From: Nitrospiraceae bacterium
GTDB taxonomy: Bacteria; Nitrospirota; Thermodesulfovibrionia; Thermodesulfovibrionales; UBA1546
Direction: 5' to 3'
NCBI GenBank assembly: GCA_003599795.1
Contig: QZJQ01000003.1
Coordinates: 1-62,521 of the forward strand
Length of the DNA stretch: 62,521 nt
The position numbers were made by a program, and so were the translations under genes. Below, in pieces: positions 12,787 to 18,595 of the stretch. The notes under the pieces were generated by a model. It ran no database searches, had not been told where the DNA came from, and saw only the letters and a list, made by a program, of their open reading frames with translations. Position 1 is the stretch's first letter; each line of letters opens with the position of its first letter.

Positions 12787-13116
12787 TTATTTAGCGCCTG
12801 TAAATTTCTTTGCCATCTCCTGCCCCTCTGCAAGCCGTTCAAGCAATACTTCCCTCATGAGACTGCATGCTTTGATCACCTTAGAATTTGACACTCTATA
12901 ATAGATATTACTTCCTTCTCTTCTCGCTGTAAGTATTCCCTTCTGCCTCATAACTGCAAGATGCTGTGATACATTTGCAGCGGATATCCCGAGCGTGCCG
13001 GCAAGCTCCCCGACAGTTAATTCCTTGCTGTTTAGCGCATTAAGGATTTCTATCCTTTTAGCGTTGCCTAATGTCTTACATATCTCGGCATGAATCTCAT
13101 AAAGTTTTTTATTCAT
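12787..13116 (-). CDS. ArsR/SmtB-family transcriptional regulator
   Basis: 109-aa winged-helix protein (LGNAKRIEILNAL, ELAGTLGISAANVSQHL). Confidence 0.9.
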   Translation of the reverse strand: MNKKLYEIHAEICKTLGNAKRIEILNALNSKELTVGELAGTLGISAANVSQHLAVMRQKGILTARREGSNIYYRVSNSKVIKACSLMREVLLERLAEGQEMAKKFTGAK

Positions 13117-13962: not shown

Positions 13963-15150
13963 TTAAGGCAGATTTGTCAAGCCGTGTTTTATCTTCCATA
14001 AGAAATATTTCTCAAATGCGATTTTGCCCCATTTATAAACGATGCCCTCTTTGAGCGCAGACTCCTGCCTTGGCGGAAGCAAGGGCTTTGCCCTCATCAA
14101 TGAAGCAGTATTCCCCATGTCCATAAGGCACAGGACATCCATCTCATAAGACGCCGGCGCAGGGCTTCCTGAAATCTCTGCGGCTATGCTGTAAGCGGCG
14201 GCCTTTGCCATCTTCACTGTCATAAAGCCTGTCTTTGGAACACCTGTCGGGATTACTGTTTGTTCAAGGGGAGCAATTGCAACTGCAACGCCGATTGTAA
14301 AAATATTCCTGTGCTTCTTGTGTCTCATATTGTCGTCAACAGGAATGAATCCCCTCGGATTTCCGAGATGCGCTACAGCAGGAACGCCTTTCATTGCAGG
14401 CGCAAACATTGCAAGTTTATGCGGTATCTTTGAGCCGTCCTTAAGCCTCGCCTCGCCGGGCACAAATTCTTCAACAGCAGTGTTTGTTATAACCTTTATG
14501 TCCCGCTTTGCAAATTCATCCTCCATTATTCTCTTTGAGTTTCTAAGCCCTCCGATGCCAAAATGCCCGATGTAAGGCTCTGAAGTCACAAAAACAATCG
14601 GAGCCTTATTCCTTATTTTTCTTTTGCGAAGTTCCGCGTCTGTCTCAAATGCGTATTCATACGCGGGCCCAAAGCAACTGACACCCTGAACAGCGCCAGT
14701 AATAATTGCGCCCGGATTTTCGAGGAATCTATTCCATGCCTTATTGGCCATTTCCGCTTGGTCAAGTGTAAAAATGCATTCGGTATTTCCTTTGTAAGGA
14801 CCAAGCCCCGGCACTTCTTCAAAGGCAAGATGGGGGCCTGTCGAGATTACAAGGTAGTCATAATGAATTTCATGCGTTCCCGTGATGACCTTAGAGGCAT
14901 CCGCGTCAATGCCTTTTGCTTCTCCGTGAATAAATGTTATGCCTTTTCTTTCAAGCATCGGCTTCAGCGGAGCAGTTATATCTTCTGCTTTTCTCCAGCC
15001 CATTGCAAGCCATGGAAGCGACGGTATAAATACAAACTTATCCATATCACTCAGGAGCGTTATGTCTGCTGTTTTGCCAAGAAGCCGTTTAAGTTCAAAA
15101 GCTGCTGTGAGGCCTCCGAATGAACCGCCCAGAACAACTATTTTTGACAT
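13963..15150 (-). CDS. sqr: sulfide:quinone oxidoreductase-type FAD-dependent pyridine nucleotide-disulfide oxidoreductase
   Basis: 395-aa ORF; N-terminal Rossmann IVVLGGSFGG; length and context (DsrE-family, rhodanese) match SQR-type flavoproteins. Confidence 0.75.
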   Translation of the reverse strand: MSKIVVLGGSFGGLTAAFELKRLLGKTADITLLSDMDKFVFIPSLPWLAMGWRKAEDITAPLKPMLERKGITFIHGEAKGIDADASKVITGTHEIHYDYLVISTGPHLAFEEVPGLGPYKGNTECIFTLDQAEMANKAWNRFLENPGAIITGAVQGVSCFGPAYEYAFETDAELRKRKIRNKAPIVFVTSEPYIGHFGIGGLRNSKRIMEDEFAKRDIKVITNTAVEEFVPGEARLKDGSKIPHKLAMFAPAMKGVPAVAHLGNPRGFIPVDDNMRHKKHRNIFTIGVAVAIAPLEQTVIPTGVPKTGFMTVKMAKAAAYSIAAEISGSPAPASYEMDVLCLMDMGNTASLMRAKPLLPPRQESALKEGIVYKWGKIAFEKYFLWKIKHGLTNLP

Positions 15151-15164
15151 GTTACCCTCCCCCT

Positions 15165-15446
15165 TTAAAACATTCCTGCTACTTTATCGTTATCAGCCAT
15201 AAGGTCCACAAGGCTGTCATAGCCTGTTTCCCTTATGCCCTTTCTTATCTCGGCGTCTTTGATTCCTCTTAATTTCAAGTCCTCTTTAAGAGCGTATGTA
15301 TTACCGCAAAAACCTTCAAGCCTTTCCCCCTGCGCAAAATAAACACCGTTCTGTATTAAGAAAAGGTCAGCAGCCATATCCTGAGCAAGCTTCACTCCTC
15401 TTTTCCCATCTGCTGTGTCAGGCCCGCTTTTAACTATTACAAGCAT
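15165..15446 (-). CDS. dsrH: DsrH/TusB-like sulfur relay protein
   Basis: 93-aa ORF MLVIVKSGP...LIQNGVYFA; last gene of an E-F-H triplet. Confidence 0.75.
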   Translation of the reverse strand: MLVIVKSGPDTADGKRGVKLAQDMAADLFLIQNGVYFAQGERLEGFCGNTYALKEDLKLRGIKDAEIRKGIRETGYDSLVDLMADNDKVAGMF

Positions 15447-15555: not shown

Positions 15556-15909
15556 TTAAAAAATCATCGTTGTTTTTGCTTCTTTGACTGTTTCCGCTAT
15601 CTCTGCGCCGGCAACAATCTTAACGCCGTCAACCACATCTCCTGTCTCCACTTGCAGCTCTGTTAGTGAACCCTTATCCGCATAAACTTCGACTCCCATA
15701 TCAATACAATCCTTCAATGCCCCTTCCAGATTTGTAAACCCGGTTCCTGCATCATCCTGCCCTTTTCTGGCAAGCAGAACGCCGCCGTCAACCAAAAGAA
15801 GACTAACGGCAAGTTCATCTGCCGCACCGCCCATTGCATGTCTTACAGCCTCTGCTGCATTTATATCGCCATACGGCGCTTTCCTGAGTATCATTGCAAT
15901 TTTTGACAT
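15556..15909 (-). CDS. dsrF: DsrF/TusC-like sulfur relay protein
   Basis: 117-aa ORF MSKIAMILRKAPYG...LLLVDGGVLLA. Confidence 0.75.
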   Translation of the reverse strand: MSKIAMILRKAPYGDINAAEAVRHAMGGAADELAVSLLLVDGGVLLARKGQDDAGTGFTNLEGALKDCIDMGVEVYADKGSLTELQVETGDVVDGVKIVAGAEIAETVKEAKTTMIF

Positions 15910-15931: not shown

Positions 15932-15985
15932 GCAGCAGCTTCAGAACTACTGCTCTGTTGCTCTATTGCTCTATGCTCTTCATGC
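15932..15985. repeat. STRR-like repeat array at the 3' end of the dsrE-like gene
   Basis: GCAGCAG CTTCAGA ACTACTG CTCTGTT GCTCTAT TGCTCTA TGCTCTT; same unit family as 15466-15555 and 6797-6955. Confidence 0.7.
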
Positions 15986-16336
15986 TCCGATGTTAAGCCA
16001 GACATCGCTATCCCCCATTGTCTTAAAAAGCCCCTTCAGAGAGCCAATCTCTGCGCCCTCCAGATAATCATCTTTCGCTGCACGGCGAAAATTCACGCAG
16101 CCGCCTCAGAGATAAACCTTCAGCCCTTTCTGTATCAGCCTTGAGAATTCCTCTTCTGCGTTTGCTATCCCCTTTGCTTTTTGCCTTTGCAGAAAACAAT
16201 AAACTCCGTCTCCTGAAGCGATGAGATTTACAGTATGCCCTTTTGTTAATGCAGACTCCGCAATCCGCACTGCAGTTACAGTGTTTTCATACGAATAAGG
16301 TGACGTTGATAAAAGCAGCGTAAATATTTTTCCCAT
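15980..16336 (-). CDS. dsrE: DsrE/TusD-like sulfur relay protein with in-frame TGA (candidate selenocysteine) at the active-site position
   Basis: Start ATG at 16336 with RBS GAAGGAGG. The track ORF stops at TGA 16106-16108, but the frame stays open for 41 more codons: ...LKVYL-U-GGCVNFRRAAKDDYLEGAEIGSLKGLFKTMGDSDVWLNIGA. U sits where DsrE/TusD has its persulfide Cys. An 8-bp hairpin (16077-16101) starts 4 nt after the TGA. Confidence 0.7.
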
Positions 16337-16407: not shown

Positions 16408-17187
16408 TCAGAAAATATCAACCCAGACTTTTATTGCGGTGCCGGATATTATCAGCGCAAGCAGCCATCTTAAAAACCTGGTGTTTGTTTTTTTGCCTGC
16501 GATTGCGCCTAATCTCGCTGTTGGAATTGCGCCAGCAAGAAGCGCTATAGACATAAAGAAAGGCACCTGCCCTGTTGCGGCCTTGCCTATTAAGCCTGCG
16601 GATGCTGAAAACAGCCCGATGGCAAGCGTGCTTCCAAGGGCAACCCTCAAAGGAATCTTCAGCACGTATAAGAGTATCGGTATTGTTATAAAGGCCCCTC
16701 CCTGTCCCACAAGGCCTATTAAAAAACCGATGAAGATTCCAATGAGGATAGCTGCCGGTTTATTGAAAACAACATTCTCTTCCGTAAGCTCATCGCGCTC
16801 ATAATTCCTTGGCATAAGCATCATTGCCGCAGCAATAAGAGCAAGCGCGGCAAAGATAAAGAGTATCGGCTTGTCAGGGACCAGTTTTGATATAAGGGCG
16901 CCTGAAAGCGAGGATGCAAACAGCGAGGAGCCGAGCGTTAACACAAGCGGTTTATTGACGAGCCTGTTTTCGTGGTAATAGAACATTGCTGAAAGAGATG
17001 CAAAAAAACCCTGCATCATCGTAAGGCCTGTAATGCTTTTAACATCTATCTCTTGAAACCCCAGCAGGGGAGGCGCATAAAACAAGAGCGGAAACATTAT
17101 TATTCCGCCCCCTAATCCAAGGAGGCCTGAAAGAAATCCGACTCAAGCGCCGGCAAGAAAAAGGAAAATAAGGAATGTGAACGGCAT
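16408..17187 (-). CDS. TauE/SafE (DUF81) family anion permease with in-frame TGA near the N-terminus (candidate selenocysteine or readthrough)
   Basis: ATG at 17187 lies 1 nt after the selD stop (TAAAATG). It reads MPFTFLIFLFLAGA-U(17143-17145)-VGFLSGLLGLGGGIIMFPLL, restoring the family-typical first TM and GxxGxGGG motif that the 229-aa track ORF lacks. Hairpin GCCUCC-UUGGAUUA-GGGGGC at 17107-17126. Confidence 0.6.
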
Positions 17188-17188
17188 T

Positions 17189-18235
17189 TTATTTCTCTAC
17201 ATGTATTCTTTTATCGCCGCCAAGAGGTTTATCAATAACATCTCCGATATAAGCTGCTATTATTTTTTCTTTTTGAAGAGCGCTTATCAGCCTGCCTTTT
17301 TTTTCTGCCGGCACGAATATGAGCAGACCGCCTGATGTCTGGGCGTCGTTCATTAAAATCTTCTCCACTTCTTTAACTCCCTTGCCCCAGGTTACGTATG
17401 ATTCGTAATTTTTGACATTGGTCTTTGTCCCTCCCGGAACAATACCGGCATCGGCAAGCCTTATTGCGTCATCAAAATACGGCACGCTACCTGAATAAAT
17501 ACGCGCACTGCACTTGCTTGCAGAAAGGACTTCATGAAGATGCCCTATAAGGCCGAAGCCTGTTATGTCTGTTGCTGTGCTTACGCCGGTTTCAAGCATA
17601 ATCTCGCTGGCCCTTTTATTCAATGCTGTCATTGAGGCCGTGAATTCCTCAATGATAGGACTGCTGCATTTGTCTGCTTTCACGCCTGTGGAAATAATGC
17701 CGGTGCCTATCTTTTTTGTCAGTATAAGCGCATCTCCGGCACGGGCTTTTGAATTATCAAGAATCTTTGCCGGATGTATCACGCCCATAACGGCAAAGCC
17801 GAATTTCGGCTCTTTATCTCTGATGGTGTGGCCTCCTATGATAGAAACCCCGGCCTCGGACATCTTGTCTATGCCGCCCTTCATAATCTGTTTAAGCAAA
17901 GGGAAAAATTCAGGCTGATTCGGGAAGAGGGCGACATTCAAGGCAACAAGCGGCTTTGCTCCCATTGCGTATACATCCGAGAGCGCGTTTGCAGCAGCTA
18001 TAGCGCCGAACCAGTAAGGGTCGTCAACTATCGGCGTAAAGAAATCAGTTGTAAGAACAACCGCGACATCATCCGTAATGCGGTAAACCCCTGCGTCATC
18101 TGAATTGGCATGGCCAACCAGAACATTCGGGTCTGTTATGTCAGGCAGCTGCCCCAGCACGTGGGACAGGTCCGAAGGACTGAACTTTGCAGCTCAACCC
18201 GCGCAGCTTGAAAGGTTTGTCAGTTTGATGTCCAT
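17189..18235 (-). CDS. selD: selenide, water dikinase (selenophosphate synthetase), selenocysteine-containing form
   Basis: The track ORF lacks the N-terminus. Extension from ATG 18235 gives MDIKLTNLSSCAG-U-AAKFSPSDLSHVLGQLP, with TGA at 18194-18196 aligned to the Cys of the SelD GAGCGCK motif. Hairpin CAGUC-CUUCG-GAC(C)UG at 18167-18182 starts 11 nt after the TGA. The rest of the ORF is SelD/AIR-synthase-like. Confidence 0.85.
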
Positions 18236-18253: not shown

Positions 18254-18595
18254 TTAATGTTTTCTTGTACCGGGATATTTCCCTTTTTTGGTGACCGGAC
18301 AACACGCAGGAGCAGGCAACTCCTTTATGTAATCCTTTTTCAGAATCTTTATTATGTCAGGAATTATCGGATCCCTGAGAAAATAACACTTGAGCCTGCC
18401 GTCCATGTAATAGTCAATCGCTCCGTATCGCCTGAGGAGCGAAAGGTGCTGCGATACATTAGGCTGGCTTATGCCAAGAAATCCTTCAATATCACTGACA
18501 CATTTCACGCCCTTCATAAGCTCTTCAAGTATTTTAATCCTTGCCGGATGGCCTATCGCCCTGAGGAGTTCAGCTCTTTTATCCAGTGAACGCAT
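18254..18595 (-). CDS. ArsR/SmtB-family transcriptional regulator with Cys-rich C-terminal tail
   Basis: 113-aa wHTH (HPARIKILEEL, FLGISQPNVSQHL); tail PAPACCPVTKKG. Confidence 0.9.
   Translation of the reverse strand: MRSLDKRAELLRAIGHPARIKILEELMKGVKCVSDIEGFLGISQPNVSQHLSLLRRYGAIDYYMDGRLKCYFLRDPIIPDIIKILKKDYIKELPAPACCPVTKKGKYPGTRKH

Follow-up and report, generated by a model that had tools for sequence, protein, structure and literature searches.

TauE/SafE-type membrane proteins (TSUP, TC 2.A.102) are described as sulfite and organosulfonate exporters, an example being TauE of Cupriavidus necator (Weinitschke et al. 2007, cited in PMC3597751). Selenocysteine (Sec) has been described in other membrane transporters, namely YeeE/YedE proteins (GUxSG motif), the ABC permease SaoP, the SO_0444 Cu/Zn efflux protein and a mercuric transport protein, and the selenophosphate synthetase SelD and the DsrE-like (UxxC) proteins are established selenoprotein families (PMC13188914). 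Lin et al. 2015 (PMC5322559) moreover put forward YedE/YedF, a system associated with selD, as a candidate selenium transporter. Here we describe a tauE/safE-family permease gene encoded directly behind selD in a stretch of 62,521 nucleotides from a Nitrospiraceae bacterium of the order Thermodesulfovibrionales (contig QZJQ01000003.1 of assembly GCA_003599795.1; hereafter the window). The gene carries an in-frame TGA at codon 15. This UGA, in the first transmembrane helix (TM1) of the selD-coupled permease, is almost certainly translated, most probably as Sec.

An initial annotation of the window, which proposed this candidate, had noted that Sec-containing SelD and DsrE-like proteins were reported and that no Sec-containing TauE/SafE permease was known. 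Both statements agree with the 2026 review of the prokaryotic selenoproteome, which includes the former two, has no TauE/SafE among its families and reports that no specific prokaryotic selenium transporter has been identified (PMC13188914). Our literature search likewise found no report of a TauE, DUF81 or TSUP selenoprotein, nor of a link between selD and TauE.

Translation across the in-frame TGA

The permease gene and its relevant codons are positioned as follows.

16408..17187, minus strand: tauE/safE-family (TSUP) permease gene of 259 codons, of which codon 15 is the in-frame TGA
17185..17187, minus strand: permease start codon ATG, one base 3' of the selD stop codon TAA (17191..17189), in the arrangement TAA-A-ATG
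17143..17145, minus strand: in-frame TGA, codon 15, proposed Sec15, in the middle of TM1 in the context G13-A-U-V16-G17-F18
17095..17097, minus strand: ATG of Met31, the first canonical start codon 3' of the TGA, at which the open reading frame (ORF) of 229 residues of the automatic annotation begins

The permease gene's own terminator is likewise a TGA (16410..16408), and this codon is otherwise an ordinary stop in the window. A global reassignment of TGA was rejected, as 14 of the 40 long ORFs of the window terminate at it.

When read through the TGA, the product of 259 residues has a sole Pfam match, to TauE (PF01925), in which residues 9-253 correspond to profile positions 1-236/237 with a score of 149.3 bits for a cut-off of 32.6. 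Because the profile is covered from residue 9, the N-terminal 30 codons belong to the TauE domain. The predicted N-terminal peptide of the read-through product is MPFTFLIFLFLAGA-U-VGF, and the same 30 codons carry the Gly-rich TM1 motif G13-xxx-G17-xxx-G21-xx-G24-x-GGG. Across 75 orthologues, G13, V16, G17, F18, S20, G21, G24 and G26-28 are invariant, and the motif is duplicated, with one copy in each half of the permease (G13..G28 and G150..A165). The translated window permease is devoid of Cys. An AlphaFold2 model of the orthologue P0010 (76% identical to the window protein; pLDDT 86.5) is all-helical with nine helical segments. A PDB sequence search found no solved relative, and the best Foldseek match, BacA/UppP (E = 0.017, TM-score about 0.45), is not reliable. 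Among database proteins, the closest (86-92% identity) all carry an N-terminally shortened annotation of 229-244 residues and are named plain sulfite exporters; P0001, P0008 and P0009 are annotated as starting at Met31, and one close protein starts at the codon right after the TGA column.

By fetching the DNA of the closest proteins and by scanning metagenomes with an unbiased degenerate pattern, we gathered seven distinct lineages with the same TGA at codon 15: the window itself (WIN), L001, L005, L078, L087, L088 and L092. They come from different samples, assemblies and projects (JGI, NCBI metagenome-assembled genomes, Logan), and one of them, L087, was newly contributed by the metagenome scan. 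Their nucleotide identity ranges from 78 to 88%, and the divergence at fourfold sites amounts to 8% for the closest pair (L087/L092) and to 19-53% for all other pairs. The gene lies directly behind selD in each case and its ATG abuts the selD stop in 7/7 lineages, the six besides the window reading TAAATG. The frame is intact over 259 codons in all seven. When GTDB species genomes were scanned for this TGA in TauE clades beyond the present one, only the two species already known were returned, besides a Xylanimonas match that was discarded as spurious, being without coding continuity upstream.

The distribution of variable sites among the seven TGA lineages is that of a coding sequence on either side of the codon. 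At first, second and third codon positions, respectively, these sites number 2, 2 and 9 in codons 1-14 (p = 0.009), 0, 0 and 9 in codons 16-30 (p = 5e-5) and 44, 33 and 157 in codons 31-259 (p = 6e-26), both TGA flanks showing the same position-3 pattern as the rest of the gene. All residues from 16 to 30 are invariant in these lineages (15/15) and match the invariant motif of the family; codon 16, for its part, reads GTC in five of them, with GTG and GTT occurring once each. No canonical start codon is conserved between codon 15 and Met31 in the seven lineages, and Met31 is invariant in the whole family, hence an internal residue. Constraint on both flanks implies that ribosomes must pass UGA15, and we regard translation of this codon as well supported by the in-frame, protein-level constraint on both sides together with the want of a conserved alternative start.

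Most of what the initial annotation had read from the letters of this region thus holds: the coupling of the start codon to the selD stop (TAAAATG) is borne out by the coordinates, the Gly-rich first helix is encoded in frame upstream of Met31 and falls within the PF01925 match, and the search it suggested for TGA-bearing orthologues next to selD yielded the same codon in seven lineages. Met31 had been taken for the only internal Met and is rather the first of several.

The downstream hairpin and the nature of the inserted residue

A putative Sec insertion sequence (SECIS) follows the TGA.

17107..17126, minus strand: candidate SECIS hairpin, 7 base pairs GCCUCCU/AGGGGGC with a loop of 6 nucleotides, UGGAUU (RNAfold)

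With the U of UGA numbered 0, the hairpin spans +19..+38; it starts 16 nucleotides after the TGA, lies within codons 21-27 and is lengthened in the window by three weaker pairs to 17103..17131. Its presence and distance had been correctly noted beforehand, the fold being one of 7 base pairs and a 6-nucleotide loop in place of the 6 base pairs and 8-nucleotide loop initially given. Across lineages, G19-C-C-U-C-C-U25 pairs with A32-G-G-R-G-G-Y38. The seven TGA lineages all form 7/7 pairs; for 73 distinct non-TGA orthologue sequences the mean is 3.8/7, and just one of these (L066) reaches 7/7, while L057, from the sister clade, forms 2/7. Every TGA orthologue keeps the hairpin, which is all but missing from the non-TGA orthologues. 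Just two stem positions vary, +35 (G/A, facing U) and +38 (C/U, facing G), and pairing is kept at both. Codons 21-25, which cover the 5' arm and the loop, are the longest run of synonymously invariant four- or sixfold degenerate codons in the gene (P = 0.003 at this pre-specified place, P = 0.18 for such a run anywhere). Residue 25 is Leu in 7/7 TGA lineages, encoded by a TTA located in the loop and closing pair, and Ile in 71/74 others, a switch suggesting that, at this otherwise near-invariant residue, a constraint on the RNA prevails. The combination of TGA, hairpin and Ile25-to-Leu change is confined to one monophyletic clade.

Two further structures were met in the course of this comparison. 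L066 (4043-4110), 66% identical and with a TCG Ser codon at the column, has the full 7/7 hairpin (CCGGCCTTCTTGGAATAGGGGGCGG), which may be due to chance or be the mark of a recoding site, either past or emerging. Another possible hairpin, at +37..+57 and with ATG31 in the loop, was discarded because it does not discriminate: the invariant GG-I-x-M-F-P-L codons dictate four of its six pairs, and the mean is 4.6/6 pairs for non-TGA sequences versus 5-6/6 in the TGA lineages.

The certain SECIS elements of Nitrospirota, taken from 62 distinct selD and 10 dsrE sequences, provide a reference. The selD element (18150-18196 of the window, minus strand) is a hairpin at +28..+46 with the loop A[C/G]GU[G/U/C]CU, conserved in the 62 selD sequences, and covariation is visible in its stem (GUCCC/GGGGC, GGCCC/GGGUC, GUCCU/GGGAC). 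The dsrE element is a hairpin at +17..+36 with the loop CGUGCN in the 10 dsrE sequences, and is UUUCGC-CGUGCN-GCGAAA for the DsrE-like gene of the window. The tauE hairpin is near-equal to the latter in position and size, with a stem starting at +19 (dsrE +17/18) and a 6-nucleotide loop in both. As in genes with an intragenic SECIS read by SelB, for which E. coli fdhF is the paradigm, a conserved in-frame UGA is followed closely by a stem-loop within the coding sequence, and the 6-nucleotide tauE loop has a G at its second and third positions. Rfam searches in gathering and E-value modes found no SECIS match at tauE, but detected neither of the certain elements of selD and dsrE and are uninformative.

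We infer that the residue inserted at codon 15 is most likely Sec and not a near-cognate amino acid, and the hairpin at 17126..17107 is a putative SelB binding site. Ribosomes ending selD would start at the abutting ATG. At UGA15, SelB with Sec-tRNA(Sec) would be recruited by the 7-base-pair hairpin located 16 nucleotides downstream (codons 21-27), Sec would be inserted and translation would proceed through the invariant Gly-rich TM1 motif. Full-length permease would then be made only when Sec-decoding capacity, hence selenium, is available.

Several observations weigh against insertion of Sec at this codon. In E. coli, the GU of the SECIS loop is contacted by SelB, and the [C/G]GU core, which never varies in the selD and dsrE elements, is missing from the tauE loop UGGAUU; chiefly because of this missing core, we consider Sec likely over other kinds of read-through and go no further. 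The fold of the single sequence is not significant (z = -0.9; 31/200 shuffles fold at least as well), so the significance of the hairpin comes solely from the orthologue comparison, and the covariation count in the TGA lineages found no compensatory double substitution. As the TGA clade is monophyletic, the association of hairpin and TGA goes back to a single evolutionary event. Retention of the TGA across the seven lineages has a probability of about 0.14 under neutrality, according to a rough estimate from the rate of synonymous invariance, and is weak evidence. The genes selA, selB and selC (tRNA-Sec) are not in the 62.5-kb window, where the sole tRNA is a tRNA-Val. Finally, Cys occupies column 15 in just 2/112 homologues, making the site atypical, and sense codons for varied residues are found there outside the TGA clade, which counts against a catalytic Sec and not against recoding.

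The other explanations of the codon differ in how they deal with its flanks and with the hairpin. If the TGA were a true stop, the gene would either yield a product of 229 residues from Met31, with GGRGG 8-12 nucleotides before Met31 as Shine-Dalgarno sequence, or be a decaying pseudogene. Automatic annotations do call products of 229-244 residues, and GGGGGCGG or AGGAGG stands at a suitable distance before ATG31. Such a stop is nevertheless very improbable, as the confinement of variation in codons 16-30 to third positions (9/9), with 15/15 residues unchanged and a similar picture in codons 1-14, is unlike untranslated sequence. No full-length orthologue deviates at Met31 or at the GGG codons, which are hence no evidence of a start, the shortened product would lose TM1 along with the signature motif of the family, and seven lineages have kept an intact frame of 259 codons. 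An origin of the TGA in faulty sequencing or assembly, or in a nonsense mutation confined to one strain, has practically no chance of being right and is already refuted, since seven divergent lineages sequenced in independent projects carry this codon. Read-through of UGA15 without the Sec machinery is judged unlikely. A near-cognate tRNA would add Trp, Cys or Arg at low frequency, and the hairpin would be incidental or would slow termination. The loop without the GU core of the selD and dsrE elements, the statistically unexceptional fold and the many residues tolerated at site 15 all speak for it, and low levels of a membrane permease may suffice. However, the hairpin is specific to the TGA, synonymously kept and paired with the Ile25-to-Leu change, which a specific RNA element fits better than chance. 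In addition, the organism appears to decode UGA as Sec in both flanking genes, SelD and the DsrE-like proteins being established selenoprotein families. Insertion of Sec during translation through the TGA, the candidate of the initial annotation, is therefore the explanation we retain, supported by the recurrence of the TGA, the third-position variation and the TGA-specific hairpin.

Residue 15 and the possible role of the Sec codon

In 112 homologous proteins, column 15 holds Ser (42), Ile (35), Val (10), Ala (10), Leu (6), Phe (4), Thr (3) and Cys (2), in line with the earlier remark that the position is not a conserved Cys; among orthologues it also includes Gly, and the Ser codons are TCN. 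The two Cys15 homologues, P0092 and P0108, both belong to the Ser-type subfamily (71-72% identity). Of 81 distinct DNA sequences, 74 are non-TGA, and none of these has a Cys codon at the column. Cys homologues exist for nearly all known selenoproteins (PMC9312934); they are customary for a Sec site but not required by the mechanism. On a helical wheel of TM1, the invariant residues extend from about 280 to 80 degrees and position 15, at about 200 degrees, falls among the variable ones. The residue matching it by pseudo-symmetry, F152 in TM5 of the second repeat, varies too. Sec15 would thus be located on the variable face of TM1, at a permissive, non-catalytic site.

In a neighbour-joining tree, the TGA lineages make up one clade. 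The codon is TCA (Ser) in the sister clade, except for TTC (Phe) in L057, and mostly TCN (Ser) with synonymous turnover in the next outgroup. The TGA arose once, most simply by a change from TCA (Ser) to TGA, in one Thermodesulfovibrionales lineage. The L057 contig (JAHILQ010000209.1) is labelled Nitrospinota, and its dsrF, dsrH and Pyr_redox_2 proteins are 77-85% identical to those of the window; its bin assignment is probably wrong.

A natural recombinant is provided by L097 (P0002, GCA_018780125.1; 4001-4774), which has an identical operon and a mosaic tauE. The body of the gene nests inside the TGA clade (bootstrap 189/200), and the first 140-190 nucleotides are 93-100% identical to the L057 lineage, with Phe15 (TTC), Ile25 and no hairpin. 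The Sec-DsrE gene is kept beside this Phe15 tauE. A Sec-less N-terminus is therefore viable and Sec15 is dispensable there, which argues against an indispensable chemical role.

Recoding being granted, the role of the residue can be weighed separately. Sec15 could be chemically functional, binding the transported Se or S species (for instance as a Se-Se adduct) and handing it to the Sec-DsrE-like carrier and to Sec-SelD in an all-selenol relay. In favour of this, three consecutive genes (selD, tauE as proposed, and the dsrE-like gene) have Sec codons, and Sec15 lies inside the most conserved motif of the family, in a window protein free of Cys where it would be the sole chalcogen-thiol residue. 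Ser is conserved in the nearest subfamily despite synonymous codon turnover, and Sec-containing transporters of the YeeE/YedE type are known (PMC13188914). Such a function nonetheless appears doubtful. On the helical wheel, position 15 falls across from the invariant Gly residues, about half of the homologous proteins have a hydrophobic residue there (Ile, Val, Leu, Phe) with the selD linkage kept, and L097 has Phe15 in the same operon with the Sec-DsrE gene retained. Another role, of low probability, can be advanced tentatively, in which UGA15 would be a selenium gate and not the codon of a catalytic residue: synthesis of the selD-coupled permease would be conditional on charged Sec-tRNA(Sec), and a peptide of 14 residues would be released without it. 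The value of such a gate would lie in the codon and not in the side chain, since almost any residue is accepted at the site. The dependence of the full-length permease on selenium may also be a tolerated accident and not a selected trait.

The selD operon and the comparison with known systems

The neighbouring genes are co-directional with the permease gene.

18254..18595, minus strand: ArsR-family regulator, immediately upstream of selD and syntenic in many related loci
17189..18235, minus strand: selD, selenophosphate synthetase (TIGR00476, E = 3e-111)
18196..18194, minus strand: canonical Sec codon TGA of selD, in the context SSCAG-U-AAK
15980..16336, minus strand: DsrE-like selenoprotein gene, with a TGA at 16108..16106 in a VYL-U-GGC motif
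15556..15909, minus strand: DsrF/TusC-like gene
15165..15446, minus strand: DsrH/TusB-like gene
13963..15150, minus strand: Pyr_redox_2 flavoprotein (pyridine nucleotide-disulphide oxidoreductase family), last large gene of the cluster
12787-13116, minus strand: second ArsR-family regulator, which brackets the cluster with the regulator at 18254-18595

The cluster also holds two more DsrE-family genes after the Pyr_redox_2 gene. The regulator upstream of selD has a Cys-rich tail (PAPACCPVTKKGK), possibly a metalloid-sensing site. Annotation pipelines split the DsrE-like gene into fragments of 76 and 38 residues. The TGA of selD is present in 67/67 related loci.

Considering the species-representative Nitrospirota loci of the permease orthologue with enough upstream sequence, the stop codon of selD is found within 400 nucleotides upstream (<=400) on the same strand in 65 out of 72, and usually abuts the permease gene. 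The position of selD and the conserved module point to selenium species, and not to sulfite, as the substrate of the permease, and the phylum-wide selD-tauE pairing makes it a candidate selenium transporter. In L001 (1-4735), the TGA-bearing selD-tauE pair lies behind genes for a molybdopterin oxidoreductase, a 4Fe-4S protein and a TorD-like chaperone, and is followed by ftsW, not by dsrEFH; from this gene order, Sec-tauE travels with selD and not with the DsrEFH genes. In L088 (6788-7302), the Pyr_redox_2 gene downstream of dsrH is found in fragments of 126 and 51 residues, compared with 395 residues in the window, which suggests that it is decaying there.

If our reading of the codon is correct, TauE/SafE (TSUP) permeases are a new family of the prokaryotic selenoproteome. 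A Sec aligned with Ser escapes the searches for Cys/Sec pairs by which many bacterial selenoproteins were found (PMC9312934), and more such cases may exist. The selD-tauE pair also offers a concrete and testable selenium-transporter candidate, a gap listed by the field (PMC13188914). With a Sec at a permissive site and a natural Phe15 recombinant, a Sec codon kept for expression control could be compared directly with one kept for chemistry.

Compared with described selenoproteins, the permease combines familiar and unfamiliar traits. Unlike SelD, the DsrE-like proteins and typical selenoproteins, it has its proposed Sec aligned with Ser, Ile and Val instead of Cys, and has no UxxC or CxxU motif. 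It shares with the known Sec-containing transporters its nature as an integral membrane transporter, theirs often being tied to chalcogen or metalloid handling, but it belongs to PF01925, a different fold and family. In YeeE/YedE (PF04143), Sec replaces a conserved pore Cys, whereas the tauE column is not conserved. With the TauE/SafE exporters it has in common the full-length PF01925 match and the Gly-rich motifs of both halves (residues 13-28 and 150-165), but its orthologous group is defined by its place directly behind selD. Although the permease has no sequence relation to YedE, and separate DsrE/F/H-type genes stand where YedE/YedF has a SirA-DsrE fusion, both systems present a membrane protein tied to selenium by a conserved association with selD, with DsrE-type proteins alongside.

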